A program made the translations under genes and the position numbers. 44,933 nucleotides of DNA from Elusimicrobiota bacterium (GTDB lineage Bacteria; Elusimicrobiota; Elusimicrobia; UBA1565), in the NCBI GenBank assembly GCA_043827405.1, contig JBDRPD010000049.1, positions 1 through 44,933 on the forward strand, read 5' to 3'. Below, piece by piece: positions 7 through 22,593 of the stretch (positions are counted from its first letter, which is position 1; each line of letters begins with the position of its first letter). Under the pieces are notes generated by a model. The model searched no databases and had not been told where the DNA came from. It saw nothing but the letters and a program-made list of their open reading frames with translations.

Positions 7-3000
7 GTGGAAGCGGTGCAGCTTTTTGCCACCGCGCAGGAAAAGCCGGACATCTACGGCTATACCGACGACGATGGGCGCAGCTTCAATAATCCGATCG
101 CGGGGGAGATTTCGGCCCTTGAGTACTCCACCGGCAATATCAACACGGCCGGTATTCTGGTGACGCCGACCGACCTGGCGCCCGAAGAGGAGCCGGGGCA
201 GCCCGGCGTGGTGCTGGCGACCAAGAAGGCGCTGGGCCAGGACGCGCCGGTGCTGCGCCAGGGCGACGGTTCAACGACCAATTCGCCCGATCCGGTCGAG
301 ATGCTGCGGCTGTCGATGGCGGTGCGGCCGGCGGCGGCGAGCCAGCTTTCCGGAGTCTGGCAGGGCCTGATCGTGCAGACTTACGGTACGCCGACCAAGC
401 TCAAGGATGAGCGCATCGACGAGCTGGCTCTCTACTATGACGCCGACCTCGGCGGCGGCGACGGCCAGTTCGACCCGACCAAGGACGTGCTGATCGCCAC
501 CGCGGCCTATGATATCAGCTCGGCCAAATGGTATTTCGGCAGCGCCGTGCCGGGTGCGCTGGTGCCCCCGGGCGTCGACACGCCGTTTGACCAGAACAAC
601 CCCTCGGCCTCGACGGTCACGACGAACGCGAAGAACTTCTTCCTGACCGTGCGGCTGGCGGCCTCCGGCTACGGCGACGACGAGCTGCCGACAAGTCTCG
701 GCCTGGGCATCTACGACACCTCCAGCGTGCTGCTCAAGCTGCCCAAGACCGTCGGCGTCGCTTCCAACAACTTCGACATCCGGACGGCGACCTCCGCGGT
801 CCAGCGCAAGGCGGCCGACATCTACGTGGGCTTTGAGAATGTCGCGGCCTGGTGGGCTCCGCCGGACGGCGGCGGCCTGCCGACCGCTTCTTACAACTAC
901 GTGGACCAGGCGGCGGAGCGCGTGGGCATGATGAAGCTTCAGATGTGGACCAATGAGTTCACCGGCACCATCGGCCAGCTCACGATAAACCGCGTCGGCA
1001 ACGGTCTCGATACCGACATCAAGAGCGTGCGTCTCTTCGTCGACAGCGCCTCGGACGGCGATGTCAGCGGCGCCAACGGCACCTTTGAGAAGGCGATCGA
1101 TACCGAGATTACCGACTTCGCGAACCCGGTATCCTTTGTCAACGGTAAGGCGACTTTGGTGCTCGACGTAAACAACGCCCCCTTCAACGCCAAGCATCGC
1201 GGCGTTGAGACCACCACGCGCACCTACTTCGTGGTCTATGACTTCGCGCCGGGCGCCAATCCGGGTCTCGAGCACGGCGCCAAGATCGTTTCCGGCGATA
1301 TCCGTTCCTTGGCCGGCAACGGCAATATCGTCTCCTTCCTGCCGTTGGTAACCTCCACCGTTTCGGTGCGGGCGACTTCCGATTTCGTAACCATGGATCA
1401 GGTTAACGGCGACGGCTGCACCAATATCGCGACGGGCTGTCCGCCGGCGAGCTCGACCGGTCCCGTGGTGGACATCCTGACCCAGGGCCAGACTTTCGCC
1501 CCGGTCGCCAAGTACACGCTGAAGACCGATGAGGGCTCGGCGCTGTGGTCCGGCCTCATGCTGGACCGCTGGATGCATTCGAGCCTGCAGGGCGGAGCGG
1601 TGGTGCTCGAGAACACGGCCAATGACGTCAAGGACATCCGCGTCTACCGCGACAAGGACGGCGACGGCCTGTTCACGCCGCCGCCGGCGGACGAGCTGGT
1701 CACCTCCTTCGGCAATATCCACAACTTCCCGAGCTCCAAGCTCGCGGTGGCGATCAGCTCGACCGCCCCGTCGCCGATCGACGTTTATGTGGAAAGCATG
1801 GCGGCCTTCTTCCCCGACGACGACGTCTTCCCGCAGGTCCCGCAGCGGCTGGTGCTCGGCGACGATCAGACCGATGAAAACCAGAAGGAAGTCATGATCT
1901 GCGACGACATCGACGTCGCCAATAAGGTCTGGCTGAACTGTGAGCGCGCCGAGGGCGGTACGCAGCAGGGAACCTTCTCTACCGGGACCGTGCTCTCCGG
2001 TCCGGCGCGCCTGAAAATCACCGGTCAGGGCGGCGGCCAAATCATCGAGCCGGGCGGCGCCGACTTCTTCGTGGTCTATGACCTCAACGCGCTGGCCACG
2101 GTCGGCCCCTCAACCAACCTCGGCACCATGCTCCTCACCACCGACTACCTGCGGGTGCAGGCGCCCAAGCAGGTCAATACCACCAATATCGGCCTGTCGG
2201 GCGCTCCGGACTTCGGTCAGACGGTGCGCTTCATCACCCGGGTCGAGGAGTATCCGGACAACATCGTGGTGCTGGCGTCCAATACGGTAGAGACCGACGC
2301 CTTCGACCAGGAGGTCGAGACCTTCCTGCAGCAGCAGTCGACGGCGGTGGTGCTCACCTTCGCGATGGCGACCGACCAAGCCGACGCCTACTGGCGCTGG
2401 GTCCTGGTGCAGGCCACCGGCACTTCGGCCGACGCCGGGGCCCAGATCAACGACGTCCAGCGGGTCTCGCTGTGGCTCGACGTGGACGGCAACGGCAAGC
2501 TGCTGGAAAACTTCGACATTGAGCTGGGCACCGGCAGCTTCAATAATGCCGGCAGCCCCAGCCCGCTGATGGCGCGCATCAACCTCAAGGCGCCGCACCG
2601 GCTGTTCACCAGCAACTACGCGGCGCAGCATAATATCTCCCAGAACTTCATGATCGCCTATTATGTGTCCGCCAACGCCGAGACCAACGAGCCGCCGCCG
2701 AACCCCGAGCCGCGGACTCTGGGCGCGACTTTGATGGCCGCCTCGTTTCCGATCGGCAACCTGGCGATCGACGACGCCGCCGCCAACTCCTTCAACCTGG
2801 CGCAGCCCAACAAGCCGAACAAGCTGGCGGATTCGTCGCCGCTGCCTTTCATCGGCAAGCAGCGCAAGATCATCCCTTCGCCGCAGACCATGACGGTGGA
2901 CATTATCCCGATGTTCGCCACCAGCACCGGCGCCTTCGAGTCCCCGCGGCTGGTGCAGGACGTTTCCGCCGTCCCCGTTGGGACCGTCGACGCCTCCTGG

Positions 3001-6000
3001 CTCATCACCTCGACGGCCGGCCTGCCCAACGGTGGGGCGACGACCTATATCACGGTCGACGAGGAGATCGTCAGCTACGACACCCTGGGCGATGTCGGCG
3101 GCCTGCCGGCCCTCATTGGGGTCGTGCGCGGACGGCTCGGCACCTCGCCGCAGGCGCATGAGGATACCACGGTGATGGCGCCCAATGTGCGGCAGGGCGA
3201 GATCAACTTCCCGATCGCCAAGATCAAAGCCTGGTCGTCGAACTTCCAGGTGCAGTGGGAAAGCCTGCGCATGCAGATGGCGGTACCGCCCGGGCTCAAA
3301 GTGGAGGACGACGATATCGCGATCGTGCGGCTATGGCGCTCAAGCACCACGGCGTTCGAGCGCAGCGGCCCCGAGGACTACAAGACCAATATACTGGCCG
3401 ACGTACCGCTGGCCAGCGGTACGGTGCAAAACGGCGTCATCTCGCTATCGATCACCGACCCGCAGCTGGCCGACGCGCCTTATACCTTGGTATCGAAGGC
3501 GACGCAAACCTTCTATGTGTCGGTGAGCATCGACCCGGCGGCGCAGTTCTCGCACGAGGAGCTGCCGGTCGATCCCAACGAGACGCTGGGCCGCTGGAGC
3601 CCGCAGGTTACCGATTTCGGGCTGAGTCCCAAGCGGGCCAACCATTCGCTGGCCTTCACTCCCAGCGTGACCCGGACCCCGGCCTATCCGATTATTCCGA
3701 CGATCAATACCATGGAGGTCCTGATGTCCGGGGCCTCGCCGAACTCGGCGCGGCAGAACCAGCAGTTCGTGCCCATGGTCAAGCTGACGGCGAAGACCGA
3801 TCAGAATACCGTGCGCTGGGAGCGGCTGGCCGTCGATCGCGCCTTCTGGGCCAGTTCGAGCACCACCCGCGGCGCCATCGATACCGATATTACCCTGCTG
3901 CGCGTATTCCGCGACTCCGACGGGGACGGCGCCTTCACCAGCGTCGATTATGCGACCGACACCCAGGGCAACTTCCCGCACATGCTGTCTTTGGGCAATG
4001 AGAGCTACGAAGACCACTCCAAGGAGATCATCTTCAAGGTGCCGGAGGTCGTTACCACCGAGGCGCAGGACTACTTCGTCACCTACGACTTCTCGCAGTT
4101 CGCCGGCATCAACAGCCTGCACGGCCTGTCGGTCGACGTGTCGACCAAGTACACGGTGCAGGTGCCGCATACCGTGATCTCGAGCCCCACGGCGGGCTAT
4201 ACCACCAACCCGCTGGTGCGCATTACCGAAGTGCCCTCCAATGTGACCCTCGGAGTAAATGACGTCATCTTCAACGGCCAGCTCGCCAACGGCAGCGATA
4301 AGATCGAGGGCGTCAGCCAGGCGCAGGCCGGCGTATCTTTCCTGCGCTTCAACCTGACGACCGACCTGGGCACGGCGGTGTGGGAGGATATGCGTCTGGA
4401 GCGCGGCGGCGGCAGCCAGGATCCGAGCAAGCTCTTCGGGCGCAATACCAATGTCAGCTTCGTCAAGTTCTGGAAGGACATCAACCAGAACGACGTTCTC
4501 GATGCGGATGATGTGAATATCTCGGAGATCGAGAGCGTGCTGATGGTGGCGGTGTCCTCCGAGACCGCCCCGCCCTTCGCCCTGGTGCTGGCGTCCACCC
4601 GGTCCTCCGACGGCGCGCGTTTCCCGCCGAGCGGACAAGGACGCATCCTGATCGGCGGCGCCGAGCTGATGTCCTTCAGCGGCTACGGCGAGACCCTGAT
4701 CGGTGGTACGACCTATCCGACGCTCAGCGTCATTTCGCGCGCCGACCGCATGGGCGACGGTCCGACGCCGAACCTCACGCATGCGGTGGGTGCCGAGGCC
4801 CGCAAGGTGGATGTCTTCAATCAGGAGGACGACCAGAACCTGCAGATTCTCGTCGAGCTGGCGGCCACGCAGACGCTCTCGCCGACCGCCGCCGTGTTCT
4901 TCGTCAGCTATGATATCGGCGCCACCGCGGTGAAGAACGACCAGGTATCGGTCAATATCCGCGACAAGTCGTGGGTCGGCGTCAGCAATCCCAACGACAC
5001 CTTGTCGACCGTGCGGGTCAAGGTGTCCAAGGAGTTCCAGACGGGAAGCAGCGTCGGCGGCTACCCGTACATCGGCACCAAGGTCTTTATCACGCCGCTG
5101 ACCCTGACTTTGACCTCGCGCAATATCGCGCCCGCCGCGGTGACCGGCGGCCAGTCGAACGTGGCGCTGGAACAGATACGGATGAACACCAGCTCGGACT
5201 TCGTGCGCGTCGCCCAGGTGCGGCTGACGCAGCTCGGCACGGTGCAGGCTCCGCCGTTCGTGAACGCCGGCAAGGGCGACGCCAGCGAGGTCGCGATCTG
5301 GCTCGATGACGGCAACGGCGCCTTCACGCCGGCCACCGATACCGAACTGGGCCGCCTGGTCCACAACGGGCTGCTCGGCGGGTCGGCGCAGTTCGATAAC
5401 GGCATGGCGCTGATCGATTTGGCGCAGGGCGGCGTGCCCTATCTGACGGTGAGCACGGTGCCGTTGACGGTCTTTATTACCGCCCATATCGCTTCGCAGG
5501 ACGTCAGCCTCGGCTCCACTATCGGCCATACGATCGGCTTCTCGCTTGAGAAGTTCAAGGATTTGATCGGGCCGAACTCGGCGGACATTACCGCCATCTC
5601 CGACGACGCGAACCAGGATCATATTCCGGCCCGTTCGGGCGTGGTCACGATATCGACCGCGGTCATCGCGCTGTCGAATTCACCGCTGCCGATCATGATG
5701 GACGAAAGCGGCTATCCCGCCTTCGCTATGGTCAAATATACGTACGAGACCAAGCTGGCGGGGCCGTGCGCCGCGCCGGACGGGACCGCTAAAACCCTCA
5801 CGGTCGATGACGCCACCGCCTTCCCGATCGCCGGCGCCTATAAGGTCCGCGTGGGCGACGAGATCATGAACGTGACCCGGACCGGCGCCGCCACCTTCCA
5901 GACGGTGGCGGACGCCTCGTGCGCGCAGCTGGTCGGCCGCGAGTGCGATAATGAAGACGGCACCAAGCCCGGCGCCGCGCATGAAGCAGGGGAATATGTG

Positions 6001-7611
6001 TTGGGCGGCGGCGCCGTGAAGCCGCAGACGGTCATGCGCGACGCGAACGACCGGCCCATCCCCGACCGGTCGAAGTGGATCAAAGGCCAGCCGATGGCGA
6101 CGTCGATGGCCGCGGTCTTCGACGGCGGATCATTTGAGCCGCTCATCGACATCAACGGCGACGGCGAGCCGGATAATATGGACTTCCTCGGCACGGGGCT
6201 GCGCCAGCAGATCAGTCTGATCGGCACCAAGGTGCCCTCGATCGACATGGACGGCGACGGCCTGCTCGATATCGATATAAACGGCGACGGCCGGCCGGAT
6301 CTGGTGCAGGACGACGGCCAGGGCAATCTGGTGTACTTCATCATCAATAAGGAGGGCAAGCCGGAGCCGCTTTCGGATCAGGGGCTCGCGCTCGCCGCCT
6401 GGAGCGCCGACAACTCACAGCTGGAGATGTCCTGGCCGATGCCGTCCTCCACTCAGTCTTTGACCGGCTACGAGGTGGCCATCGGCGAGAGCTTCGACAA
6501 CCGCACCAATCTCAAGAACTGGTTCTACGTCGGGACCAAAACCACGGGCACCCTCTCGGCGCTCAACCTGCCGGTCGCCAACGTCACGCACCTGAAGTCG
6601 TCGATGACGGCGACCTCGCAGGAGATATTTGTCGAGGAGACCTTCTTCGAGCGCGGCCTCCTTATCGTCGGCTCCGAGCTCATCGGCGCCCGCCGGGTGG
6701 GCGATCACTACGTCGTCGATCCGACCATCGCGGGCTGTCCGTCGGGCAGCGGCCGCGGCTGCGGCGGCTCCCTGCCGCAGGTCCATCTGGAAAACGAAGT
6801 CGTTTCCAGCGACATGGTGCTGGTCTCGGTGCGCGGCTTCACCGGGCCGCGCGCGAGCCCCACGGGCTATGTGCCGTCGCCGACGGGGCGTCCGATCCTC
6901 GCCTACCGTATTGATGATACGCCGCCGTCGGAACCGCCGACCAGCCTGCGCTCCTCGGTGGCGAAGGGCGACGCCAAGACCACCTTTACCCTCTCCTGGA
7001 GCGAGGCGGTGGACAGCCAGTCCGGCATCAAGCTCTACCATATCCAGGAACGGTCGAACGTTGATCCGGTGTGGAAGACCATCGGCATGATTCCGGCCAA
7101 GCTCAGCGGCACCAAGGGCGAGCGGCTCAATACCAAGTACACCGTGGGCAGCGCCGCGCAGAACCCGACGGAAAAGCCGCGCGCCACCGGACAATTCCTG
7201 ACCTATCGCGTGCGCGCCTACAGCAGCGCCGGCACCCCGTCGGGCTGGTCGACAGAATCCGCGGCGGTGGCGACCTCGATCACCAGCGAGGTGATCGATA
7301 AGGTGTCGAACTATCCGAATCCGTTCGACTCGCGCAAGGGCGGGCCCGAGGGGCAGACCGTCATCGTCTACACTTTGGGCACGGCCTCGGATGTCGAGAT
7401 CGTGATCTACGACCTGCTGGGCTATGTGGTTAAGAGCTTCCACTTCACCCCCGGCGAAAACGGCGGCCGGCAGGGCGCCAACTACGTGATATGGGACGGC
7501 CATAACGGTATGGGGCGGCCGGTGGCCAAGGGCGGCTACATCGCCCGCATCAAGGTCGGCTCGAGCCTCGGCACCGCCACCATCATCCGCAAGATCGGCG
7601 TCATCCACTAA
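7..7611 (+). CDS. Giant repetitive secreted/surface protein with FN3 domain and C-terminal T9SS/FlgD-Ig-type sorting domain (N-terminus probably incomplete)
   Basis: 2534-aa ORF. About 8 beta-rich modules share D(I/V)xx(V/L)x(L/V)(F/W/Y)xD..DGDG.F and (Y/F)FVxYD motifs. DxNGDG Ca-binding-type motifs at ~6148-6300 and an FN3-like segment DDTPPSEP..TLSWSEAVDSQSGI at ~6913-7260. The C-terminus VSNYPNPF..IVYTL..IYDLLG..WDGHNGMGRPVAKGGYIARIKV..RKIGVIH is a typical CTD/FlgD-Ig pattern. No signal peptide. Confidence 0.8.
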   Translation: MEAVQLFATAQEKPDIYGYTDDDGRSFNNPIAGEISALEYSTGNINTAGILVTPTDLAPEEEPGQPGVVLATKKALGQDAPVLRQGDGSTTNSPDPVEMLRLSMAVRPAAASQLSGVWQGLIVQTYGTPTKLKDERIDELALYYDADLGGGDGQFDPTKDVLIATAAYDISSAKWYFGSAVPGALVPPGVDTPFDQNNPSASTVTTNAKNFFLTVRLAASGYGDDELPTSLGLGIYDTSSVLLKLPKTVGVASNNFDIRTATSAVQRKAADIYVGFENVAAWWAPPDGGGLPTASYNYVDQAAERVGMMKLQMWTNEFTGTIGQLTINRVGNGLDTDIKSVRLFVDSASDGDVSGANGTFEKAIDTEITDFANPVSFVNGKATLVLDVNNAPFNAKHRGVETTTRTYFVVYDFAPGANPGLEHGAKIVSGDIRSLAGNGNIVSFLPLVTSTVSVRATSDFVTMDQVNGDGCTNIATGCPPASSTGPVVDILTQGQTFAPVAKYTLKTDEGSALWSGLMLDRWMHSSLQGGAVVLENTANDVKDIRVYRDKDGDGLFTPPPADELVTSFGNIHNFPSSKLAVAISSTAPSPIDVYVESMAAFFPDDDVFPQVPQRLVLGDDQTDENQKEVMICDDIDVANKVWLNCERAEGGTQQGTFSTGTVLSGPARLKITGQGGGQIIEPGGADFFVVYDLNALATVGPSTNLGTMLLTTDYLRVQAPKQVNTTNIGLSGAPDFGQTVRFITRVEEYPDNIVVLASNTVETDAFDQEVETFLQQQSTAVVLTFAMATDQADAYWRWVLVQATGTSADAGAQINDVQRVSLWLDVDGNGKLLENFDIELGTGSFNNAGSPSPLMARINLKAPHRLFTSNYAAQHNISQNFMIAYYVSANAETNEPPPNPEPRTLGATLMAASFPIGNLAIDDAAANSFNLAQPNKPNKLADSSPLPFIGKQRKIIPSPQTMTVDIIPMFATSTGAFESPRLVQDVSAVPVGTVDASWLITSTAGLPNGGATTYITVDEEIVSYDTLGDVGGLPALIGVVRGRLGTSPQAHEDTTVMAPNVRQGEINFPIAKIKAWSSNFQVQWESLRMQMAVPPGLKVEDDDIAIVRLWRSSTTAFERSGPEDYKTNILADVPLASGTVQNGVISLSITDPQLADAPYTLVSKATQTFYVSVSIDPAAQFSHEELPVDPNETLGRWSPQVTDFGLSPKRANHSLAFTPSVTRTPAYPIIPTINTMEVLMSGASPNSARQNQQFVPMVKLTAKTDQNTVRWERLAVDRAFWASSSTTRGAIDTDITLLRVFRDSDGDGAFTSVDYATDTQGNFPHMLSLGNESYEDHSKEIIFKVPEVVTTEAQDYFVTYDFSQFAGINSLHGLSVDVSTKYTVQVPHTVISSPTAGYTTNPLVRITEVPSNVTLGVNDVIFNGQLANGSDKIEGVSQAQAGVSFLRFNLTTDLGTAVWEDMRLERGGGSQDPSKLFGRNTNVSFVKFWKDINQNDVLDADDVNISEIESVLMVAVSSETAPPFALVLASTRSSDGARFPPSGQGRILIGGAELMSFSGYGETLIGGTTYPTLSVISRADRMGDGPTPNLTHAVGAEARKVDVFNQEDDQNLQILVELAATQTLSPTAAVFFVSYDIGATAVKNDQVSVNIRDKSWVGVSNPNDTLSTVRVKVSKEFQTGSSVGGYPYIGTKVFITPLTLTLTSRNIAPAAVTGGQSNVALEQIRMNTSSDFVRVAQVRLTQLGTVQAPPFVNAGKGDASEVAIWLDDGNGAFTPATDTELGRLVHNGLLGGSAQFDNGMALIDLAQGGVPYLTVSTVPLTVFITAHIASQDVSLGSTIGHTIGFSLEKFKDLIGPNSADITAISDDANQDHIPARSGVVTISTAVIALSNSPLPIMMDESGYPAFAMVKYTYETKLAGPCAAPDGTAKTLTVDDATAFPIAGAYKVRVGDEIMNVTRTGAATFQTVADASCAQLVGRECDNEDGTKPGAAHEAGEYVLGGGAVKPQTVMRDANDRPIPDRSKWIKGQPMATSMAAVFDGGSFEPLIDINGDGEPDNMDFLGTGLRQQISLIGTKVPSIDMDGDGLLDIDINGDGRPDLVQDDGQGNLVYFIINKEGKPEPLSDQGLALAAWSADNSQLEMSWPMPSSTQSLTGYEVAIGESFDNRTNLKNWFYVGTKTTGTLSALNLPVANVTHLKSSMTATSQEIFVEETFFERGLLIVGSELIGARRVGDHYVVDPTIAGCPSGSGRGCGGSLPQVHLENEVVSSDMVLVSVRGFTGPRASPTGYVPSPTGRPILAYRIDDTPPSEPPTSLRSSVAKGDAKTTFTLSWSEAVDSQSGIKLYHIQERSNVDPVWKTIGMIPAKLSGTKGERLNTKYTVGSAAQNPTEKPRATGQFLTYRVRAYSSAGTPSGWSTESAAVATSITSEVIDKVSNYPNPFDSRKGGPEGQTVIVYTLGTASDVEIVIYDLLGYVVKSFHFTPGENGGRQGANYVIWDGHNGMGRPVAKGGYIARIKVGSSLGTATIIRKIGVIH

Positions 7612-7638
7612 AAGCCTAATGGCCGGCGCTCGTCGGGA

Positions 7639-7654
7639 TGTGACTTGGGTTACA
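7639..7654. promoter_or_regulatory. CRP/FNR-family-like operator
   Basis: TGTGA-cttggg-TTACA, one mismatch to TGTGA-N6-TCACA, in an AT-rich intergenic region. Confidence 0.4.
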
Positions 7655-7730
7655 TTTTTATTCGTCGAGAAATTAACATTTCTGTGATGCGGTATTGAAT
7701 TGTGTTTATAATTGCACGATATATTTCCTA

Positions 7731-7758
7731 TTGACAAGTCAAGCAATCCGGTTATACT
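7731..7758 (+). promoter_or_regulatory. sigma70-type promoter upstream of riboswitch/porV-like gene
   Basis: TTGACA (7731-36), 16-nt spacer, TATACT (7753-58). Confidence 0.75.
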
Positions 7759-7816
7759 TAGAATGTAGTGTGGGTCGCGCTCCTGGTACGGGGATGGGCG
7801 TAAGCAAGGGAGCGTT

Positions 7817-7900
7817 ATCGAACGACAATAGCTAACCCGGTGTAAGCCGGGGGCGCAAAGCGAAGGGCCCGGGTTCCGGGTCGCCTGGCTACCGAAACGA
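7817..7900 (+). ncRNA. GEMM-I (c-di-GMP-I family) riboswitch aptamer, A20 variant (3',3'-cGAMP-type)
   Basis: CG-ACAAU-A-GC-UAA, then P2 CCCGGU-GUAA-GCCGGG (GNRA loop), GG-C-GC-AAA-GC junction, P3 GCCCGG-GUU-CCGGGU..GCC..GGC and 3' UAC-CGAAA. Spacing matches the GEMM-I architecture. Located in a 5' UTR. Confidence 0.85.
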
Positions 7901-7945
7901 ATGACCATTTTCGGACTCGGGGAGACGTCCCCGAAATCGAAAGGA

Positions 7946-9535
7946 ATGCTCGCAAAAGCGCGGATGTGCGCTGTTGCGGGTGTTTTTGTTTATATAACGT
8001 CCTTCTCGCCCGCGCTGCCGACCCTCCAGGCAGCTTCCGAGGGCGGTGGACAGGCCGCAGCCTTCCTGCAGTACGGCGTCGGAGCCCGCGCCCTGGGAAT
8101 GGGCGGAGCCTTCTACGCGGTTTCCGACGACGCAACCGCCGCATACTGGAACCCCGCCGGACTCGCCTACCTCCAGCGCAAAGAAGTGACCTTCATGCAG
8201 ACGGCGCTCTTCGCCGACACCCAGTACGGATACTTTGGTTACGCCCATCCAACCGCGACCAAAGGCACCTTCTCGCTCGGCCGTGTCGCTCTGACGGCGA
8301 GCGGGTTCGAAAAAGTCGACGCCCTGTTCGATCCCGCGACCGGGGAGCCGACCAACGTCACCGCGGCCGGTTCCTTCCAGGACAGCAAGCAGGCCATCCT
8401 GCTCTCCTGGGGTAAAGAGGCGACCGAGACCCTGGCGTTCGGTCTGTCGCTCAAGAACATCAAGCGCCAGCTCTCCGATTCCAGCGACAGCTTCAATACC
8501 CTGGACGTCGGTTCCATGAAGAGAATGGGCCGCAACTACCGCCTGGCGGTCGGCGTGCAGAACGTCTTCAGCATGAAGACCGGCGATACCGATGACACTA
8601 TCCCGGTCATCCTTAAGGTCGGCAACAGCATGAAGATGTTCAAGGACCGGATGCAGCTGGGCTTCGACGTGCAGAAGTCGCAGAGCTCGCCGCTTAACTG
8701 GCGCTTCGGCGGCGAGTACTGGGCCTCCCGCTGGTTCGCGGTGCGCTTCGGGCTGCTGGCAACTCCGGAGATCCAGGAAACCGATTTCGGCTTCGGCATC
8801 AAGACCCGCCGCATCGTCTTCGACTACTCGATGGGCATTCACGAGCTCGGCACCAGCAGCCGTATTTCGGTGGGCCTGCTCTTCGGCCGCTCGCGCACCG
8901 ACCGCTCCGAGGAGCAGGTCAAGCTGATCATCGAGCAGGGTTTCGAGGCCTTCAAGGCCGGCGACTTCCAGCTGGCCACGCTGCGCCTCAACCAGGCGCT
9001 GGATGCCGCGCCGCACAATAATCAGATCAAGGAAATGGCGGCGCGGCTGCAGACGGTGGTCGGCTTCGTGCCGCAGGCGCTGGGCGGCGAGGAGTTCCAG
9101 ACCTTCGTGCGCAAGGGCGTCATCTCCTACGTGGACGGCCGCGACATCAAGGGTTCGGTCAACGCCCTGCGCTACGCCTACAATATGAAGCCCGAGGATG
9201 AGACGCTCCTCAAGCTTCTCAACTACATCGAGAAGGAGGCGAAGGTCGGCGAGATTACCCGCAATGTCCAAGGCGTGCAGCGCTTCACCTTCGTCGATCA
9301 GAAGCTTTACGACGCGCGCCAGGCCATCTACGACGGCAAGTACGATCTGGCGATCCGCCGCATCCAGGACGTTCTGGATCTCGAGCCCAACAACATCACC
9401 GCTCTCGAGATCATGGGCTCCGCTTTCTTCCTGATGGAGGACAAGGCCAAGGCCCGGGCCGTTTGGAGCCGCGTTCTGGAGATCGATCCGGAAAATAAAG
9501 TCGTCTCACAGTTCATCAAGCAGGCGTCCAACTAG
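7946..9535 (+). CDS. PorV/PorQ-family (UPF0164) outer-membrane beta-barrel with C-terminal TPR domain
   Basis: Signal-peptide-like N-terminus. Signature AAFLQYGVGARALGMGGAFYAVSDDATAAYWNPAGL, amphipathic strands ending SSRISVGLLFG, then TPR-like helices (YDLAIRRIQDVLDLEPNN, ARAVWSRVLEIDPEN). Start uncertain (7901/7946/7964); 7901 abuts the aptamer. Confidence 0.85.
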   Translation: MLAKARMCAVAGVFVYITSFSPALPTLQAASEGGGQAAAFLQYGVGARALGMGGAFYAVSDDATAAYWNPAGLAYLQRKEVTFMQTALFADTQYGYFGYAHPTATKGTFSLGRVALTASGFEKVDALFDPATGEPTNVTAAGSFQDSKQAILLSWGKEATETLAFGLSLKNIKRQLSDSSDSFNTLDVGSMKRMGRNYRLAVGVQNVFSMKTGDTDDTIPVILKVGNSMKMFKDRMQLGFDVQKSQSSPLNWRFGGEYWASRWFAVRFGLLATPEIQETDFGFGIKTRRIVFDYSMGIHELGTSSRISVGLLFGRSRTDRSEEQVKLIIEQGFEAFKAGDFQLATLRLNQALDAAPHNNQIKEMAARLQTVVGFVPQALGGEEFQTFVRKGVISYVDGRDIKGSVNALRYAYNMKPEDETLLKLLNYIEKEAKVGEITRNVQGVQRFTFVDQKLYDARQAIYDGKYDLAIRRIQDVLDLEPNNITALEIMGSAFFLMEDKAKARAVWSRVLEIDPENKVVSQFIKQASN

Positions 9536-9596
9536 CGATGGCGACCGCAGACCGGCCGGACAGCCCACCGAAAGAGACGGTTATGGTCGTTATTAA

Positions 9597-9621
9597 GGAT
9601 GGCCGCAAACGGCGGCCATTC
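9597..9621 (+). terminator. GC-rich hairpin after porV-like gene (possible terminator or mRNA-stabilising stem)
   Basis: GGATGGCCGC-AAACG-GCGGCCATTC, with a weak U-tract. Confidence 0.4.
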
Positions 9622-9627
9622 TCCGTA

Positions 9628-9656
9628 TTGAAAATTTAACAACGTATGCTTACACT
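9628..9656 (+). promoter_or_regulatory. sigma70-type promoter for motor module
   Basis: TTGAAA (9628-33), 17 nt, TACACT (9651-56). It overlaps the ORF-track ATG at 9646, which favours the 9685 start. Confidence 0.6.
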
Positions 9657-9684
9657 TTGGAGGCAGGACAGGGTTTCGACAACG

Positions 9685-11628
9685 ATGCTGATAAATAGAG
9701 TGACATCGCTTCTGCTCGCATGCTGTCTGCTGCCTTGGCAGGCATGGGCGGAGCTGCAGCCGCCGAACCTTGATCTCCTGAAGATGCGCGACGAGGTCAA
9801 GCGGGAAGCGCAGTCACGGATTCAGACGGAGATTCTCGATCGGGTCCTGGGCCAGAACAAGGCCTCCGTCTTTGTCGACCTCGAGCTGTCGCTGCGGGCT
9901 CGCCGGCGCGAGAACCTGAAGGGCGGCGCGGGCAAGACCGAGGAGTACAAGGCCAAGGGAGAAAAGCAGGGCGCCATCCCTACCGACATGTTCCTGCCGG
10001 GGGTGCCGCGGCCCAAGACGGTGACGCCGAAGAAGGAGATGGAAATCCCGGAGGCGGCCCAGGGGCGGACCGCCGAACTCTCCAAGGTCGAGCAGGAGGA
10101 GATCCATACCCAGGAAGTCCAGATCAAGGACTTCAAGGCGACGGTCATCCACGACAAGGGCTTGTCTCCCAAGAAGCGCGACGAAGTGCGGGCGCTTATC
10201 CTCGATGCCATGAGCGAGTACGAGATGGTGCCCGAGAACGTGATTTTCCGGGAGGCCGAATACTATTCGGCGGGGGAGAAGCCCTGGAAGCAGAAGCTGC
10301 TCGACGATCTAAAGGAGCCCAAGGTCTTTATCCCGCTGCTTTACGCCCTGCTGACTTTGCTGCTGCTGCTGTTTTTGTTCGGCCCGCTGCGGAGCTTCTT
10401 CCGGCGCTACACCGAGGCGCTGGCCGCCAAGCCCGCCGCCGAAGTGAACATCGAGTCGAATATCACGCCGCCGGATGACGAAGAGGAGGGCGGCGCCGGC
10501 GGGGGGGGAGGCGGCGGCACGGAGGACGGCAAGCTCGACATCATGATCGGCCGCAAGCCGCCCGAGCCGCCGCCTGATCCGGAGTCGGAAGAGGAGGACG
10601 ATATGGCGAAGATGGAACCCTTTGCCTATATTACCGAAGAGAACCTTAAGCGGCTGGCGAACCTGTTTCTGCTGCGGCGGGAGGAGCCGTGGCTGATCGC
10701 GGTGGTCCTGAGCTATCTGCAGCCCGAATTCGCCCGTGAGGTGCTGGCCTCCCTTCCGGTGGAGATCCAGTCGAAAGTGGCGATGGAGGCGCTCAAGGTG
10801 CGCCAGGTGACGCGCGAGCAGGTGCGCGCCATCGACGAGGATATTAAGGAGAACGTGGAGTTCGTGGTCGGCGGCATCGAGCGGCTTACCCGCATGCTCG
10901 AGGAGAGCGATCCGGCGACCCGGATGAATATTCTCGAGTCGCTCAAGAACGAGAAGCCGGTGGTCTATGAGCATGTGCGGCGCTCCATCCTGCTGTTCGA
11001 AGACGTCGTTGAGTTTCCCGACAAGGAAATGCAGATCATCGTGCGCGAGCTCAAGACCGAGGATATGGCCAAGGCGCTGCAGAACTGCACGCCGGAGGTG
11101 GTCGACAAGTTCTTCAAGAATATGTCGGCGAACGCGGCGTCGCTGCTCAAGGAGTCCATGGAGTTCATGAAGGACCTGACGCCGACGCAGATCGAGGACG
11201 AGCGCGGGAAAATACTTGATACCGTCAAGACGTTGGAGAAAGAGGGCAAGGTCAATATTCGCTCCGGCGGCGACCTGGGCAGCTACCAGGAGGTTTTGGC
11301 GACCGATGACGAGCGCGGCAAGAAGTATGAGGCGGTCGAGAAGGAAGAGCCCAAGGTCGAGCTCAACCCCGAAGAAGCGAAGAAGTACTTTGATGCCGGG
11401 GTATCCTCTTATGAGGAAGGCAAGCAGGATGAGGCGCTCGAGTACTTCCGCCAGGCGGTCGATTACGATCCCGACCTGTGGGAGGCCGCGCAGTATATGG
11501 GAACGATTTTGAGCGAGATGGGACGCACCTCCGAGGCGCTTATGTATTACGAGAAGGTCTTGGAGAAGCATCCGGACCAGGAGCTGCAGGCCTGGGTGGA
11601 CGCGCAGAAGACGCAGGCGCAGTCGTAG
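9685..11628 (+). CDS. FliF-RBM3-like / single TM / FliG middle+C-terminal / TPR fusion protein
   Basis: Signal peptide MLINRVTSLLLACCLLPWQAWA. FliF-RBM3-like SRIQTEILDRVLGQNKASVFVDLEL..LPG..IKDFKATVIHD..EVRALILDAM. TM at ~10324-10389. FliG motifs PFAYI, EEPW (EHPQ), GG hinge, ILLFED (MFxF) and FFKNMS..AA.LLKE. C-terminal TPRs. The FliG part is clear; the FliF part is less certain. Confidence 0.8.
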   Translation: MLINRVTSLLLACCLLPWQAWAELQPPNLDLLKMRDEVKREAQSRIQTEILDRVLGQNKASVFVDLELSLRARRRENLKGGAGKTEEYKAKGEKQGAIPTDMFLPGVPRPKTVTPKKEMEIPEAAQGRTAELSKVEQEEIHTQEVQIKDFKATVIHDKGLSPKKRDEVRALILDAMSEYEMVPENVIFREAEYYSAGEKPWKQKLLDDLKEPKVFIPLLYALLTLLLLLFLFGPLRSFFRRYTEALAAKPAAEVNIESNITPPDDEEEGGAGGGGGGGTEDGKLDIMIGRKPPEPPPDPESEEEDDMAKMEPFAYITEENLKRLANLFLLRREEPWLIAVVLSYLQPEFAREVLASLPVEIQSKVAMEALKVRQVTREQVRAIDEDIKENVEFVVGGIERLTRMLEESDPATRMNILESLKNEKPVVYEHVRRSILLFEDVVEFPDKEMQIIVRELKTEDMAKALQNCTPEVVDKFFKNMSANAASLLKESMEFMKDLTPTQIEDERGKILDTVKTLEKEGKVNIRSGGDLGSYQEVLATDDERGKKYEAVEKEEPKVELNPEEAKKYFDAGVSSYEEGKQDEALEYFRQAVDYDPDLWEAAQYMGTILSEMGRTSEALMYYEKVLEKHPDQELQAWVDAQKTQAQS

Positions 11629-11696
11629 CCCGTTTTATACCACGCCGAGGAAGACATCCGCTGCCCTGAACGGGCGGCGCAGAGAGTGATATCGCC

Positions 11697-13895
11697 ATGG
11701 CTGATGAATCGATATTCGACCACTATCCTCCGCCCCCTCCGGGCGGACCGCCGGCGCCGTCCGGCCGGCCGCCGGGTCCGCCGCCTCCACCGCGGTCCCG
11801 TCCGGGCCTGCCGCCGGGGCCGCCCCGGGGCGGCCTGGGGCTGCCGCCGGCGCCCCCGCCCCCGCGCGGGCGGATGCCGGGGCCTCCCGGCATGCATCCG
11901 GGCATGCCTCCCGGCCCGCCGCCCGAGGATCCGCGCAAGCTGGAGCTTGAGGAAAAGGTCCAGCAGCTGGAAAAGAAGCTCGAGAAGGAGCATGAGCAGG
12001 TCCTGCTTGCCAGCCTGAAGTCCCAGGAAGAGAAGGCGATCGCCGCCCGCGTCGAGACCTCGATAAAGGATATTCAGGACAAGCTGCGGCGCGACCGGCG
12101 CGAGGCGGAGAACGAGGAGGTGCGTCTCAAGCTCGAGACCAAGATCACGGAGCTGGAGAGCCGGCTGGTCCAGGAGCGGGAGACCTGGGTTTCGACGCTC
12201 AAGAACCAGATGGCTTCCCGGGAGGGCCAGGACAAGGAAATCGAGACGCACTTCATGATGCGCATCCAGGAAATGGAGCGCCGCTGGCTCGAGGAGAAGG
12301 CGCATTGGCAGACGGTTTCCAACAATAGCGCCGAGGAGAACCGGCGCCTGAAGGAAAAGCTTGAGGGGCTGGAGAAGATCGACGCGGAGTACCAGAAGGT
12401 AAGCCACGACAAAGAGGCCCTGGAGGAGCGGGTTCGGGAGATGGCCCAGGACAAGGCCACGCTGCAGGCGAAGGTGAACGGCGCCTCGGAGCGGGAACGC
12501 GACTTCTTCCAGATGAAGGCCGACCTGCAGACCACGCGCGAGCAGCTGCGGATCAGCCAGGAGAAGTACGAGCGGGACCTCCCGGCCGCGCGCGCCTCGG
12601 CCAAGGAGCGTGAGCAGCGGCTGCTCAGCGACAACGAGCGTCTGCAGAGCGAGCTGGCCGGCGTCACCCGGCGCATTCGCGCCGAATACGAGTCGGAGAT
12701 ACGCCGCATTCGGGCCGAGAGCGAGGGCGAGCTGAAAAAGTCCCGCGCCCAGGCCGATCTGGCGGGCGCCGCCCTGCAGCGCATGCGCGCCGTGGGCAGC
12801 GCGCTCGAGAAGCAGGTCGCCTCCCTGCGCGCTCAGGCCACCGAGGCCAAGAAGCTGAAGGAAGAGATGCAGCGGATCAACGAGCGCTACAAGGCGGAGT
12901 TCATCGTCCTGCAGCGCAAGTGGCAGGACCGCGAGGTCGAGATTCGCAAGTCGGCGGAAGCCGACTTCGAGAAGCGGCTGGAGACGGAAAAGACCAAGAT
13001 CAAGCTGCGGGCGCAGGAGGAGGTCCAGAGCCGGGTGATTAAGGTTCAGGAGAACCTGCGCAAGGACATGGAAGGGCAGCTGCTCGAGCGCGAGCGCGCG
13101 CTGCGGCTGGAGACGGAGCGGCAGGTTTCCGAGCGCTCCCAGAAGGCGCAGAAAGAGCTGGAGGATATGCGCCGCAAGCTCGAGGACGAGCTCAAGCGCA
13201 AGTCCGACGAGTACGCCAAGCGCGACCTGCACTGGCAGGAGCGGCAGGTCAAGTCGGAGACCGAGACCAATACGCTTAAGGCCGAGCTCGACGGCATCCG
13301 TCTGCGTCTTAAGAAGGAAGAGGAGCTCAATATAAAAACCGCGCAGGAGAAGATGGAGCTGGAAAAGACCGCCTCCGGCCTTTACGAGAAGGTCCGGCTG
13401 CAGCAGGCCGCAATCGATGAGAACGCCAAGCGGCTCGACGAAGAGGAGCGCCGTTGCCGCGCGCTGGCCAAGGAGAAGGACAAGTGGGAGCAGGGGCAGG
13501 CCCTCTACGAGGAGCGCATCGGCGACGCGCGCGCGCGTCTCGCGAAGCTTGAGGGGGATCTCGCCGCGGCGCAAGCCGAGGGCGCGTCGCTGCGCAGCGG
13601 CAAAGTCGAGCTGCAGGAGACGGTGGCGAAGATCGAGGCCGAGCACTCCCGCCAGCTCGAGACCTGGCGGCGCAAGCTCGATCTGGTGCGGCGCGACTAT
13701 GAGGCGCGCCTTAAGAGTGTTGAGGCGGAGCGGGGGCGGGCGCTGCGGGATTTGGCCAATAAGGAAGCGGCGGCGCAGCAGCGGCCGGCGGTGGAAAGCG
13801 AGTCGGTTTTCGATAAGCTCCAGGGGATATGGAAAAAGAAGGACAGCCCGCAGCGGCCCGAGCCCCCGGCGCCGCCGATGATCGGGTCGGTCTAG
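11697..13895 (+). CDS. Cytoplasmic long coiled-coil protein with Pro/Gly-rich N-terminus
   Basis: ~70 aa of poly-Pro/PPG repeats followed by ~620 aa of E/K/R/L/Q-rich heptad sequence. No signal peptide, TM or Walker motif. Confidence 0.85.
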   Translation: MADESIFDHYPPPPPGGPPAPSGRPPGPPPPPRSRPGLPPGPPRGGLGLPPAPPPPRGRMPGPPGMHPGMPPGPPPEDPRKLELEEKVQQLEKKLEKEHEQVLLASLKSQEEKAIAARVETSIKDIQDKLRRDRREAENEEVRLKLETKITELESRLVQERETWVSTLKNQMASREGQDKEIETHFMMRIQEMERRWLEEKAHWQTVSNNSAEENRRLKEKLEGLEKIDAEYQKVSHDKEALEERVREMAQDKATLQAKVNGASERERDFFQMKADLQTTREQLRISQEKYERDLPAARASAKEREQRLLSDNERLQSELAGVTRRIRAEYESEIRRIRAESEGELKKSRAQADLAGAALQRMRAVGSALEKQVASLRAQATEAKKLKEEMQRINERYKAEFIVLQRKWQDREVEIRKSAEADFEKRLETEKTKIKLRAQEEVQSRVIKVQENLRKDMEGQLLERERALRLETERQVSERSQKAQKELEDMRRKLEDELKRKSDEYAKRDLHWQERQVKSETETNTLKAELDGIRLRLKKEEELNIKTAQEKMELEKTASGLYEKVRLQQAAIDENAKRLDEEERRCRALAKEKDKWEQGQALYEERIGDARARLAKLEGDLAAAQAEGASLRSGKVELQETVAKIEAEHSRQLETWRRKLDLVRRDYEARLKSVEAERGRALRDLANKEAAAQQRPAVESESVFDKLQGIWKKKDSPQRPEPPAPPMIGSV

Positions 13896-13912
13896 CCGGT
13901 TTCTGTAATGCG

Positions 13913-13921
13913 TGCTATAGT
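13913..13921 (+). promoter_or_regulatory. Possible extended -10 promoter for flbD-motAB
   Basis: TGcTATAGT 27 nt upstream of the flbD ATG; GAGGA Shine-Dalgarno before 13949. Confidence 0.4.
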
Positions 13922-13948
13922 GAGGGTCACTCACGGTAGAGGACAGGA

Positions 13949-14176
13949 ATGATAAAGCTGACGAGATTGAACGGAGAGCCGTTCACGCTCAACGCGGAGC
14001 TCATCGAGACGCTCGAGCCTGCGCCCAAGAGCACGGTCGTCCATCTGGCGACCAACAACCGATACAACGTTTTGGAGTCGGTGGACGATATTACGGGAAA
14101 GGTGATAGAGTACCGTCGGAAAGTCAACGCGGAATCCAAGGGATTCAACGCGATTCGGGGTTTCGAGAGGACGTGA
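13949..14176 (+). CDS. flbD: FlbD/SwrD-family protein
   Basis: MIKLTRLNGEPFTLNAELIETLE..P.STVVHL..N..Y.V.ES.D.I..KVIEYRRK matches the family pattern; usual position directly before motA. Confidence 0.9.
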   Translation: MIKLTRLNGEPFTLNAELIETLEPAPKSTVVHLATNNRYNVLESVDDITGKVIEYRRKVNAESKGFNAIRGFERT

Positions 14177-14192
14177 TTAGAGAGGGCTCGCC

Positions 14193-14999
14193 ATGGATTT
14201 AGGGACCATATTCGGCATCCTGATGTTCGCCGGGCTCGCCGGCGGCGCCATCATCCATTCAGAGGGCCTTGCGGGATTCAAGCCGTTTCTGAACGCCGAG
14301 GCTTTTCTCATCGTTATGGGCGGGACCTTCTGCGCGACGCTCGTCAACTTTCCCCTGAAACACGTGCTGGGACTGGGCAAGATCGTGCGCAAGGTGATGT
14401 TTCAGGTCAAAGAGGATACCACGAATATCGTCAGCGTCTTCGTGACCCTGGCGCAAAAGGCCAAGCGCGAGGGTTTTTTGGCTCTGCAGGAGGACGTCGA
14501 CGCCTTAAATGACGACTTCATCAAGCGCGGCATTCAGCTGGTGATCGACGGCGCGGATCAGGAATTCATCCGCAATATGCTGGAGACCGAGATCGGCTTC
14601 ATCCGTGAGCGCCATAAGGGCGGCCAGGAGATCTTCGCGGCGCTGGGCACCTATGCCCCCTGCTTCGGCATTATCGGCACCGTTCTCGGCATGATCCTGA
14701 TGCTGAGCTCGATCGAAGACGTCTCGGCGGTGCCGCGCCGGATGGCGCTGGCGCTCTCCGCCGCCTTCTTCGGCCTCGGTTCCGGCTATCTGATCTTTCT
14801 GCCGATGAGCGGCAAGCTGAAGACCCGCTCGGAGGAAGAGCTGCTGATCAAGGAAATCGTGATCCGCGGCGTCCTGCTGCTGCAGAGCGGCGCTACCCCG
14901 ACCGTGGTGGAAGCGAATCTGAAGGCTTATCTCGAGCCCTCCAAGCGCGTGCTCGTGCGCCTGGATGAGGGGGAGGCGGCTCCGCCTCCGGCGGCCTAG
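14193..14999 (+). CDS. motA: Stator A subunit MotA/PomA family
   Basis: MDLGTIFG, AFLIVMGGT, AKREGFLAL, FIKRGIQLVIDG, YAPCFGIIGTVLGMI, FLPMSGKL. Confidence 0.93.
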   Translation: MDLGTIFGILMFAGLAGGAIIHSEGLAGFKPFLNAEAFLIVMGGTFCATLVNFPLKHVLGLGKIVRKVMFQVKEDTTNIVSVFVTLAQKAKREGFLALQEDVDALNDDFIKRGIQLVIDGADQEFIRNMLETEIGFIRERHKGGQEIFAALGTYAPCFGIIGTVLGMILMLSSIEDVSAVPRRMALALSAAFFGLGSGYLIFLPMSGKLKTRSEEELLIKEIVIRGVLLLQSGATPTVVEANLKAYLEPSKRVLVRLDEGEAAPPPAA

Positions 15000-15002
15000 C
15001 GT

Positions 15003-15716
15003 ATGGCGCTTAAGCCGCCCAAGGGCTGCATTGATGAGTCGGATCCCCGGGTCGCGCAGTTCGGCCACCCGGCGCCGGCCTGGCTTTTCCCTTACGCCGA
15101 CCTCATGACCGAACTCGTCTGCTTTTTCGTCATCCTCTATGCCTTGTCGGCGGCTCTCGATCCGGCCGCGCAGAAAGGCAAGGAGGAGATCGACAAGGTG
15201 ATGGATGAGCAGGGGGTCGCGGGCGAGGTTACGCTGACCAAAGAGGGCCTGCGCGTTTCGATGACGGAGGAAGGCGGCTTTTCGTTTTTCGAAAGCGGCT
15301 TCGCCGAGCTGACTCCGAAGATGCGGGAGACCCTCGCCAAGATGGCGGTTCCGCTAAAGGGTATGGCGGAGCAAAACAAGATGATCCTCGTCGAAGGATA
15401 TACCGATAATATCCCGATCCATAACGATTATTTCTGGTCCAACTGGGAGCTGTCCACGGCGCGCGCCACGTCGGTAGTCGAGTATTTCATCAACGAGAGG
15501 GGCTTCCCGCCCGCCTGCATGGCCGCCATGGGCTTCGGCGAGCATCAGCCGAAGTGCAAGGAAAACAGCCACGAATGCCGCAGCCGCAACCGGCGGGTCG
15601 AGTTTTTAGTGCGCAGCCCCGGCCTGGGCACCAATATATGCTCCGGCAAGCCCACACCAAAGCCCGCGCCCAAGGCTGAGCGGGGCCCGCCCGCGCAGGA
15701 GAAGAAGGAGACATGA
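15003..15716 (+). CDS. motB: Stator B subunit MotB (TM Asp + OmpA-like peptidoglycan-binding domain)
   Basis: WLFPYADLMTELVCFFVILYA TM with the conserved Asp; VEGYTDNIPI, SNWELSTARA, NRRVEF. Confidence 0.93.
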   Translation: MALKPPKGCIDESDPRVAQFGHPAPAWLFPYADLMTELVCFFVILYALSAALDPAAQKGKEEIDKVMDEQGVAGEVTLTKEGLRVSMTEEGGFSFFESGFAELTPKMRETLAKMAVPLKGMAEQNKMILVEGYTDNIPIHNDYFWSNWELSTARATSVVEYFINERGFPPACMAAMGFGEHQPKCKENSHECRSRNRRVEFLVRSPGLGTNICSGKPTPKPAPKAERGPPAQEKKET

Positions 15717-16429
15717 AACATTATTGGATACTGATCCTTCCCGTCGCGGCGCTGGCGCTGGCCGGGAGCGGCTGCGGCAGCATGCAGCTGGGCAAGGCCA
15801 GCAAGAAAAAGGTTGTGCTCAAGGACTTCGCGGAAGGCCGCGTCGAGCAGGTGGCTATTACCGACCGCCTGACGGGCGCCAAGGAGATGCTGTTCGTCTC
15901 GATGCCCAAGAAATCGCTTTTTCTCGAGGGCTATATCGTGGGCGCCGTGACCGACTACGACGACAAGCCGATCGAGGGGGTGGTGGTGCGGGCGGTGGCC
16001 GAGGGGGAAGCGAAGTTCGTGGCCAAGGGGCAGGCGTCCTTCCAGACGTCTTCCTTTGACGCCGGCGTCAGCGATACCAACGGCATCTACCGTATTCGCT
16101 TCAGCCTGCCCATCGTCAATAATATCGTGGATATCCAGGGCAAGCTGATGTATAACCCCGGCTGGGAGCAGGAACTTATCAACCTCGGTCAGGCCTATGA
16201 GCCGCAGAAGAAGGAGAGTCCGTTCCGGCTCTATTTCGATATGAAGCAGGGGATGATCGTCTTCGGCGAGGGCCAGCAGAAGGTCGTCGTCCGCTCCGCG
16301 ATCGGCGAAGCGCGCGACCGCGCCGTGCCCGGCACTAAGGCGGCGGCGCCCGCCGCGGGGGCAGGTCAGAAGCCCGCCGGCGAGGAAGAGAACCTGTTTC
16401 AGGGTTTTGGTTTCGGCGCGTCACCTTGA
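15713..16429 (+). CDS. Lipoprotein with carboxypeptidase-regulatory-like (prealbumin-like) beta domain
   Basis: Lipobox-like LAGSG-C; IVGAVTDYDDKPIEGVVVRA..SDTNGIYRI; ATGA overlap with the motB stop. Confidence 0.7.
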   Translation: MKHYWILILPVAALALAGSGCGSMQLGKASKKKVVLKDFAEGRVEQVAITDRLTGAKEMLFVSMPKKSLFLEGYIVGAVTDYDDKPIEGVVVRAVAEGEAKFVAKGQASFQTSSFDAGVSDTNGIYRIRFSLPIVNNIVDIQGKLMYNPGWEQELINLGQAYEPQKKESPFRLYFDMKQGMIVFGEGQQKVVVRSAIGEARDRAVPGTKAAAPAAGAGQKPAGEEENLFQGFGFGASP

Positions 16430-17586: not shown

Positions 17587-17625
17587 GTGCCGGCCGCCCG
17601 ACGTAAATAAGTAAAATAGGATGTT

Positions 17626-19163: not shown

Positions 19164-19170
19164 GGCCGAT

Positions 19171-22541: not shown

Positions 22542-22593
22542 CCCATAAGTTAAAAACCGGTACCTTAACAAAACCGGTACCTTAACTTTTGGG
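22542..22593. repeat. 17-bp tandem direct repeat nested in a 12-bp inverted repeat between convergent genes
   Basis: AAAACCGGTACCTTAAC x2 (22553-22569, 22570-22586); flanks CCCATAAGTTAA / TTAACTTTTGGG (11/12 complementary). Confidence 0.8.

Follow-up and report, generated by a model that had tools for sequence, protein, structure and literature searches.

Gene row and genomic context

The stretch of DNA analysed here, referred to as the window, is the whole 44,933-nt contig JBDRPD010000049.1 (C49) of an Elusimicrobiota genome (GCA_043827405.1, labelled G000; other G numbers are other genomes and L numbers are retrieved loci). At its 5′ end lie eight co-oriented genes. They encode the end of a giant secreted protein, a PorV-family outer-membrane carrier with a tetratricopeptide repeat (TPR) tail, a rotor protein in which a FliF-like domain is fused to FliG, a coiled-coil protein, FlbD, MotA, MotB and a lipoprotein. 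All eight open reading frames (ORFs) were found in the order and at the positions given by the original prediction (Table 1). Many groundwater-type Elusimicrobiota lack a flagellum but retain a pared-down motor gene set of this kind, beside genes for a carrier in the outer membrane and a very large surface protein. Such a gene set suggests an undescribed rotary machine acting on secreted giant proteins. The parts are of known kinds, and their combination fits neither the flagellum nor the definition of a type IX secretion system (T9SS).

The window was predicted to hold no flagellar genes other than motor parts, and none was seen among the 27 window proteins scanned. Across G000 (completeness 97.97%, contamination 0.48%), no match was obtained to FlhA, FliP, flagellin (PF00669), rod and hook proteins (PF00460), FliM/N (PF01052) or ring-building motifs (RBM) 1-2 of FliF (PF01514). 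As a positive control, each of these six families was matched in 4 of 14 control genomes. A complete flagellar set elsewhere in the genome, which would mark these genes as an ordinary flagellar motor, was looked for and not found. G000 contained six FliG_C matches. Four were accompanied by motAB (C49, C42, C54 and C68), one lay next to a TPR gene with no stator (C52), and the last was an isolated 87-residue fragment amid mobile-element genes (C99:20211-20474). In a sample of 121 genomes of the phylum, FliG_C was matched in 45 and MotA in 47, including all 45. FlhA and flagellin exceeded their cut-offs in the same three genomes, so that 42 of the 45 FliG-bearing genomes had no flagella. Neither FliG nor MotA was matched in the 71 genomes of two small-genome families. 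The flagellated genome G064 carried a flagellar FliG plus separate fusion rotors.

The link between motor and porV had been described as resting on adjacency alone. It proved to be kept across the phylum and across paralogues, and so is no longer a single adjacency. Orthologues were counted over 80 GTDB loci, and for each feature only loci with enough flanking sequence were included. A PorV-type TPR gene lay directly 5′ of the rotor gene in 71 of 72 testable loci. On the 3′ side, the coiled-coil gene was present in 67 of 68, flbD-motA-motB in 49 of 53 and the lipoprotein gene in 40 of 53. The paralogue set consisted of hand-picked FliG places (63 FliG rows from 64 loci, with three flagellar FliGs left out). 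The FliF-like domain reached threshold in 46 of these rows, and motA lay within five genes in 41. PorV was directly 5′ in 33 rows, always of the TPR type (33/33) and with a gene for a protein bearing the T9SS C-terminal domain (CTD) before it in 26; it was nearby in 38. Ten further rows had a free TPR protein encoded 3′ of motB, and nine of those loci also had a different predicted barrel of 635-674 residues. The pairing of porV-TPR with the rotor gene is the most stable link, while motAB and the giant gene can sit elsewhere.

Within G000, the motor-type TPR subfamily was confined to C49, C54, C42, C23, C68 and C52; the C23 member is at a contig end and grouped with motor-linked PorVs. In a quick tree, the clade of the window PorV (SH-aLRT 98) comprised 31 rows, 30 of them motor-linked, and none of the 24 other PorV rows of G000. 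On the FliG tree, hand-assigned PorV-partner labels needed 8 changes versus 31.7 when shuffled, with 12 of 67 rows unlabelled. Since kin share labels, this agreement shows co-inheritance of the modules, not binding.

Rotor relatives in GTDB (the best 80 of 113) were labelled Elusimicrobiota in 74 cases and only 'bacterium' in 6. Occurrence outside the phylum was poorly sampled by the searches made: the single-protein locus searches, which are insensitive, gave three partial matches in other phyla in one case and one match in another, a protein search with an alignment gave none, and a whole-library profile search returned mostly TPR proteins with no taxonomy attached.

The motor genes were also predicted to have a promoter of their own. 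This candidate is weaker than one found 5′ of porV (Table 1). As the scan returned 4 sites versus 1.9±1.5 in shuffled sequence, neither promoter is established. The gap between porV and the rotor gene was between −16 and +4 bases in 7 of 71 loci, which suggests that the two genes are co-transcribed despite the weak internal candidate.

Table 1. Features of the motor-PorV gene row in the window
Feature	Position	Strand	Basis or remark
C-terminal ~2,535 residues of giant secreted protein	7..7611	+	T9SS-type-A-like CTD at about 7285-7608
Sigma70-like promoter candidate 5′ of porV-TPR	7731..7758	+	11/12 consensus match only
PorV-family 14-stranded outer-membrane barrel with C-terminal TPR	7901..9535	+	PorV_fam, predicted fold
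Weak promoter candidate from the original prediction	9628..9656	+	9/12 consensus match; not distinguishable from chance
Rotor fusion: FliF RBM3-like domain, transmembrane helix, FliG M/C, TPR	9646..11628	+	likely start ATG 9685
Cytoplasmic protein, Pro-rich N-terminus then long charged coiled-coil-like helical region	11697..13895	+	composition
FlbD/SwrD-family small protein	13949..14176	+	PF06289, E 8e-21
MotA, flagellar-type stator A subunit, four hydrophobic segments	14193..14999	+	best PDB matches MotA/PomA, E 1e-46
MotB with conserved membrane Asp, plug and OmpA-like peptidoglycan-binding domain	15003..15716	+	family scan, alignment
Predicted lipoprotein, accessory, Elusimicrobiota-centred family	15713..16429	+	N-terminal Cys in 6/6 orthologues displayed

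Rotor, stator and carrier

The family scan of the rotor product placed FliG_M and FliG_C above cut-off, together with TPR. From the N-terminus, the protein has a signal or anchor segment, a periplasmic domain resembling FliF RBM3 and the β-collar (about 9766-10260), one membrane helix, a flexible low-complexity linker, FliG M/C and the TPR. The predicted model of the FliF-like domain (predicted local distance difference test, pLDDT, 71) showed a helix, a long strand, a disordered insertion, a second long strand, a helix and a strand. VIA-align against 48,161 chains ranked FliF RBM3 first (Z 11.6; root-mean-square deviation 1.8 Å over 94 residues), followed by other ring-building motifs with Z of 8-9.5. 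All 16 Foldseek matches at E≤0.001 were FliF RBM3 or collar. The sequence profile matched SpoIIIAG best (PDB 5WC3, E 5e-4) and also matched FliF, and 15 of 20 rotor family members matched YscJ_FliF_C at E≤1 (best 2e-8). The predicted FliF/FliG fusion was therefore correct in that both kinds of domain occur in one protein, but the FliF share is limited to RBM3/β-collar and a single membrane helix. A separate FliG_N was not evident in the rotor, and the Pfam match to FliG_N overlaps FliG_M.

The layout with two hydrophobic segments was common to all 28 membrane-type paralogues inspected. In one of them (C42:20691-23174; L056:5692-8172), a membrane helix and a HisKA/HATPase histidine kinase precede the FliF-like domain and FliG, and the same kinase-rotor layout of about 820 residues was seen in G090 (L114:9841-12300). 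Other variants were also noted. G065 has a 346-residue FliG with no membrane part, nested in the window-type clade (L120:9339 region). In a deep rotor clade (L052, L103, L122-L124), motAB lies two genes downstream. In several families a conserved charged helical protein of 1,546-1,854 residues, in some cases with a TPR end, is encoded 3′ of the rotor or porV (L044, L049-L051, L053, L061, L062), with no match in G000.

The stator resembles that of the flagellum. MotB keeps its membrane Asp, plug and peptidoglycan-binding domain, and identity among the MotA orthologues of the phylum is 51-76%. The following positions, placed by motif, are taken by us to be equivalent to FliG 281 and 288 and MotA 90 and 98 of E. 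coli. Their roles follow the available text of PMC12505986 and PMC6445934. The MotA Arg90-equivalent was K or R in 10 of 10 aligned rows, and the Glu98-equivalent was Q in five and E in five. In all 21 window-type rotors the FliG Asp288-equivalent was E, and the Arg281-equivalent was lost (G, N or S); Arg was present in both flagellar FliG rows. The torque-helix charges of other rotor paralogues looked more eroded than those of window-type rotors. The small protein encoded before motA belongs to PF06289, which we take to be SwrD, and the Pfam description points the same way. PMC13277936 names SwrD among torque enhancers. A second motB gene is found in many paralogous modules (L045, L057, L089-L102 and others), and in some of them this copy is without the membrane Asp, hinting at heterodimeric stators. 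Chemotactic steering of the motor seems unlikely, because no methyl-accepting chemotaxis protein (MCP) was matched in G000 and only 6 of the 42 non-flagellated FliG-positive genomes had one.

The product of 7901-9535 scored 104 bits against NCBIfam PorV_fam (cut-off 90) and lay far below the cut-off of the strict PorV equivalog NF033710. Its model had 14 strands followed by TPR helices (pLDDT 87). The best Foldseek matches were the PorV structures 8GL6 and 6H3I, and the PDB search matched the PorV of 6H3I at E 2e-16. The barrel topology suggests that the TPR tail is periplasmic. The coiled-coil protein is rich in Glu, Lys and Arg, has no membrane segment and had no Pfam match. The lipoprotein-like product had no family match, and its relatives fell in unnamed Atlas clusters whose commonest phylum was Elusimicrobiota.

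Giant cargo and the T9SS-like outer-membrane system

The ORF at the 5′ end was predicted to be a giant CTD protein. Its end does resemble a type A CTD, with a borderline TIGR04183 score (22.9 bits, cut-off 23), but the ORF corresponds to no more than the final ~2,500 residues of orthologues that are 13,791-14,374 residues long. The best PDB match of the CTD profile was the PorU CTD (6ZA2, E 7e-7), and the FlgD Ig domain, aligned over a shorter stretch, scored almost as well. The ORF is 47% identical to residues 11,975-14,374 of the G090 orthologue, and also matched the tail of the 13,791-residue orthologue in G076. The latter has a signal-peptide-like start and weak Big_13 Ig-like repeats; no other repeats were recognised. 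The window ORF is probably cut by the contig edge; an in-frame TAG occupies bases 1-3 at the contig end, and the remainder of the gene was not found in G000. Of the 24 top-scoring CTD matches across the phylum, 14 are in open frames spanning 10,763-19,358 residues. According to the available text of PMC11573180 and 10.1101/2023.11.21.568195, Elusimicrobiota have many huge proteins to which no function has been assigned.

Custom profiles identified 27 genes with a C-terminal CTD and 29 PorV-like genes in G000, and 23 of the PorV genes were directly 3′ of a CTD gene. Only three of the 29 adjoin a rotor gene, and most CTD-PorV pairs have neither motor nor motor-type TPR. Stand-alone CTD-only genes of 115-160 residues were also seen directly 5′ of porV (C42:18718-19080, C23:19616-19996 and C66:49933-50277; L044, L049-L051, L062). 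On C68 (2-29260; L058, L068), genes for a Kelch/fn3 CTD protein of at least 7,851 residues, CARDB, FecR and a 643-residue barrel-like protein converge on a fliG-motA-motB-motB-TPR module with no PorV.

A SprA gene, looked for elsewhere in the genome, was present as a single-copy homologue of 1,854 residues (C17:8074-13638; L065). It matched TIGR04189 at E 3e-41 (141 bits, below the cut-off of 200), was assigned to Atlas SprA_N clusters at 0.98, and its profile matched only 6H3I/6H3J (E 1e-37). A single-sequence PDB search gave no match. A weak PF14349 (SprA_N) match in G000 was rejected, as it lies inside an SMC gene. The C17 gene is a SprA homologue, and its function as a translocon would follow that of Bacteroidota. 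It was found in 114 of the 121 genomes, even in those of ~1 Mb, and in 64 of 71 in the two families without FliG or MotA. Among 20 loci (L069-L088), its neighbours included lptF-like genes in 17 gene matches and comF-like genes in 15. LptD had no match in G000 with PF04453, the one model used. A role of the SprA homologue in envelope biogenesis is possible.

Other T9SS components were less evident in G000. GldM (TIGR03517) had no match at E≤0.1, and no search was made for GldL. Four ORFs matched GldK partially and far below cut-off, as in three control genomes; GldN was not searched for. The PorU sortase model (NF033707) matched only the CTD end of cargo proteins. With GldM unmatched and GldK and PorU only partial below cut-off, we did not file the system as a member of the T9SS.

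CTD matches occurred in 105 of the 121 genomes, with a median of 19 in FliG-positive versus 1 in FliG-negative genomes. Of the 76 FliG-negative genomes, 69 keep the SprA homologue and 60 keep CTD matches. Seven of them have 9-17 CTD matches, and three (G056, G110 and G111) have 14-17 and no motor match. The motor is therefore not required for all CTD export.

The transcription unit of the window extends past the lipoprotein gene into iscS and mnmA homologues, neither of which is a conserved part of the module. The region 16426-30717 is a housekeeping run (cysteine desulfurase, mnmA, ddl, PBP1A, alanine racemase on the minus strand, mfd, two SurA/PPIases and pdxA). It is followed at 30714-39134 by genes for a LolA-like protein, two MacB/FtsX permeases, an ABC ATPase and unknown proteins of 398 and 1,071 residues. 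A cassette resembling the latter region also lies 3′ of the C54 motor module.

Possible roles of the motor

The module shares features with several known systems. As in the flagellar motor, a FlbD/SwrD gene precedes motA, the MotB subunit has a membrane Asp, plug and OmpA domain, and FliG M/C and the FliF RBM3 fold are present. In contrast to the flagellar motor, no export gate, rod, hook, filament or FliM/N was found, FliF is cut to RBM3 and one helix and fused to FliG, the Arg281-equivalent is lost, and each genome has several paralogous motors. The SpoIIIAG ring, a sporulation channel, likewise uses an RBM with an inserted β-hairpin outside the flagellum, but has no FliG and no stator. In Salmonella, a laboratory FliF-FliG deletion fusion without FliF_C and FliG_N still rotates and swims with reduced function, according to the available text of PMC6445934. 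Such a rotor, joined in the same way as the one described here, can thus turn; unlike ours, it sits in a complete flagellum with FliM/N and RBM1-2.

The SprA homologue, the PorV-family barrels and the CTD cargo are shared with the T9SS and gliding machine of Bacteroidota, as is a 5:2-type ion motor with a periplasmic ring, which we propose here to act on the PorV-cargo complex. The differences are the absence of a GldM match, GldK and PorU matches below cut-off, the shorter SprA homologue (1,854 versus 2,403 residues), the 29 PorV-like genes mostly one-to-one with cargo, the TPR tail of PorV and the flagellar origin of motor and ring. Cognate cargo-shuttle pairs are known in Flavobacterium, where type B CTD cargo has its own PorP/SprF shuttle (PMC12618676, as far as its text was available). 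Similarly, an own barrel lies directly 3′ of 23 of the 27 CTD genes here; these shuttles, however, are of the PorV/PorQ family, and most CTDs score nearer type A.

We consider it moderately probable that a ring driven by MotAB is dedicated to one class of surface proteins, and pulls on, or turns, the PorV-TPR carrier and giant cargo that belong to it. Giant CTD proteins would cross the outer membrane via the single SprA-like barrel and be caught by their adjacent PorV-like carrier, as judged from Bacteroidota. The FliF(RBM3)-helix-FliG(MC) fusion would oligomerise into a membrane ring free of export gate, rod and switch, as a natural counterpart of the laboratory deletion fusion. Wall-anchored MotAB, aided by FlbD/SwrD, would push FliG by ion flow, unswitched by CheY. 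To judge from the strict genetic linkage, the coupler between the ring and the outer-membrane barrel may be the periplasmic TPR tail in motor-type PorVs and, in modules with another barrel, the free TPR protein. The force would pull the carrier-cargo complex off the translocon, turn or move the 10,000-19,000-residue cargo on the surface, or both. In operation the machine would parallel the T9SS pair of PorLM motor and PorKN ring, but be assembled from flagellar parts. We favour this reading by analogy with the T9SS, where energy is needed for letting go of the carrier-substrate complex (PMC10994853) and where attachment complexes that contain PorV are seated on PorKN rings driven by a motor (PMC12365241), both according to the portions of text available. 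A more specific picture is possible but rather doubtful: a one-protein rotor turned by MotAB would be geared via TPR to the PorV barrel, so that the cell spins or drags a giant T9SS-secreted filament, with several paralogous motors each serving their own cargo and one wired to a kinase.

Several observations weigh against a dedicated motor of this kind. Among 63 testable orthologous loci, only 38 have a CTD gene before porV, and in six retrieved genomes porV does not come next after the giant CTD gene. flbD-motAB is apart from porV-fliG in seven retrieved genomes, and in G064 separate contigs carry the porV orthologue and the rotor gene. Five rotor rows of the deep clade had neither PorV nor TPR detected among their neighbours. 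The motor-linked PorVs did not form a single clade in the quick tree, which gave at least three lineages. The relatedness of the genomes means that the counts are not independent. The loss of the Arg281-equivalent and the eroded torque helices of other paralogues also count against it, as do the FliG-negative genomes that retain the SprA homologue and CTD matches.

The lost Arg281-equivalent may instead reflect a scaffold that rotates barely or not at all, in which ring and stators would hold the PorV-cargo complex in place and signal load or contact with a surface. The kinase-bearing rotor paralogue and the scarcity of MCPs are in line with such a mechanosensor. However, the MotB Asp and the MotA Arg90- and FliG Asp288-equivalents are kept, MotA is well conserved, the SwrD-like gene is retained, and the kinase fusion occurs in two loci only. 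We regard this alternative as unlikely.

It is less likely still that the FliF-FliG ring and MotAB stand in for GldKN and GldLM in all CTD export. The original prediction pointed towards such an energiser, and the unmatched GldM, the lack of any GldK above cut-off and the much larger CTD repertoire of FliG-bearing genomes would agree with it. Against it stand the 69 FliG-less genomes with SprA and the 60 with CTD matches, the three CTD-rich genomes with no motor match, the CTD-PorV pairs without a motor and the small number of PorV-like genes beside a rotor. Gliding-type movement, the other role raised in the original prediction, would be set in a genome with no match to a chemoreceptor or to the FliM/N switch.

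The stators and FliG might also help in twitching by type IV pili or in a different process at the envelope, with porV a mere neighbour. This idea is put forward tentatively in 10.1101/2022.07.08.499144, which places pilus genes in most free-living Elusimicrobiota. The separability of motAB from porV-fliG would fit, but the neighbour kept across orthologues and paralogues is a PorV-type TPR gene, and we give the idea little weight. An ordinary or decaying flagellar motor, its other genes unassembled or lost, is highly improbable: flbD-motA-motB is a flagellar gene order, the stator and FliG are of flagellar type and the assembly is in 108 contigs, but six flagellar families are unmatched in a nearly complete genome, 42 of 45 FliG genomes have no FlhA, G064 keeps its flagellar FliG apart from the fusion rotors, and several intact paralogous modules occur per genome.

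The presence of motAB, flbD and fliG in free-living Elusimicrobiota without flagella has been noted and its role called unclear (10.1101/2022.07.08.499144, available text). The word PorV does not occur in that text, its supplements (Fig. S2) apart. A term search of the available text of 10.1101/765248, PMC7031533, PMC11573180, 10.1101/2023.11.21.568195, PMC12057145 and PMC12204202 found no motor-PorV link. A full-text literature search, covering few subscription papers, found nothing joining Elusimicrobiota FliG/MotAB to PorV, CTD or SprA, and in the same literature, bioRxiv supplements apart, no report of a FliF-FliG fusion in the phylum.

If the proposed reading is true, the module would amount to a FliG rotor conserved for a non-flagellar task. 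It would also place a T9SS-like system beyond the Fibrobacteres-Chlorobi-Bacteroidetes (FCB) group and on another motor, with two major machines joined in a natural chimera. The single-gene rotor and MotAB would be small enough for reconstitution in a laboratory strain. For the phylum itself, the system would offer an export route and a role for its unexplained huge proteins (PMC11573180, available text).

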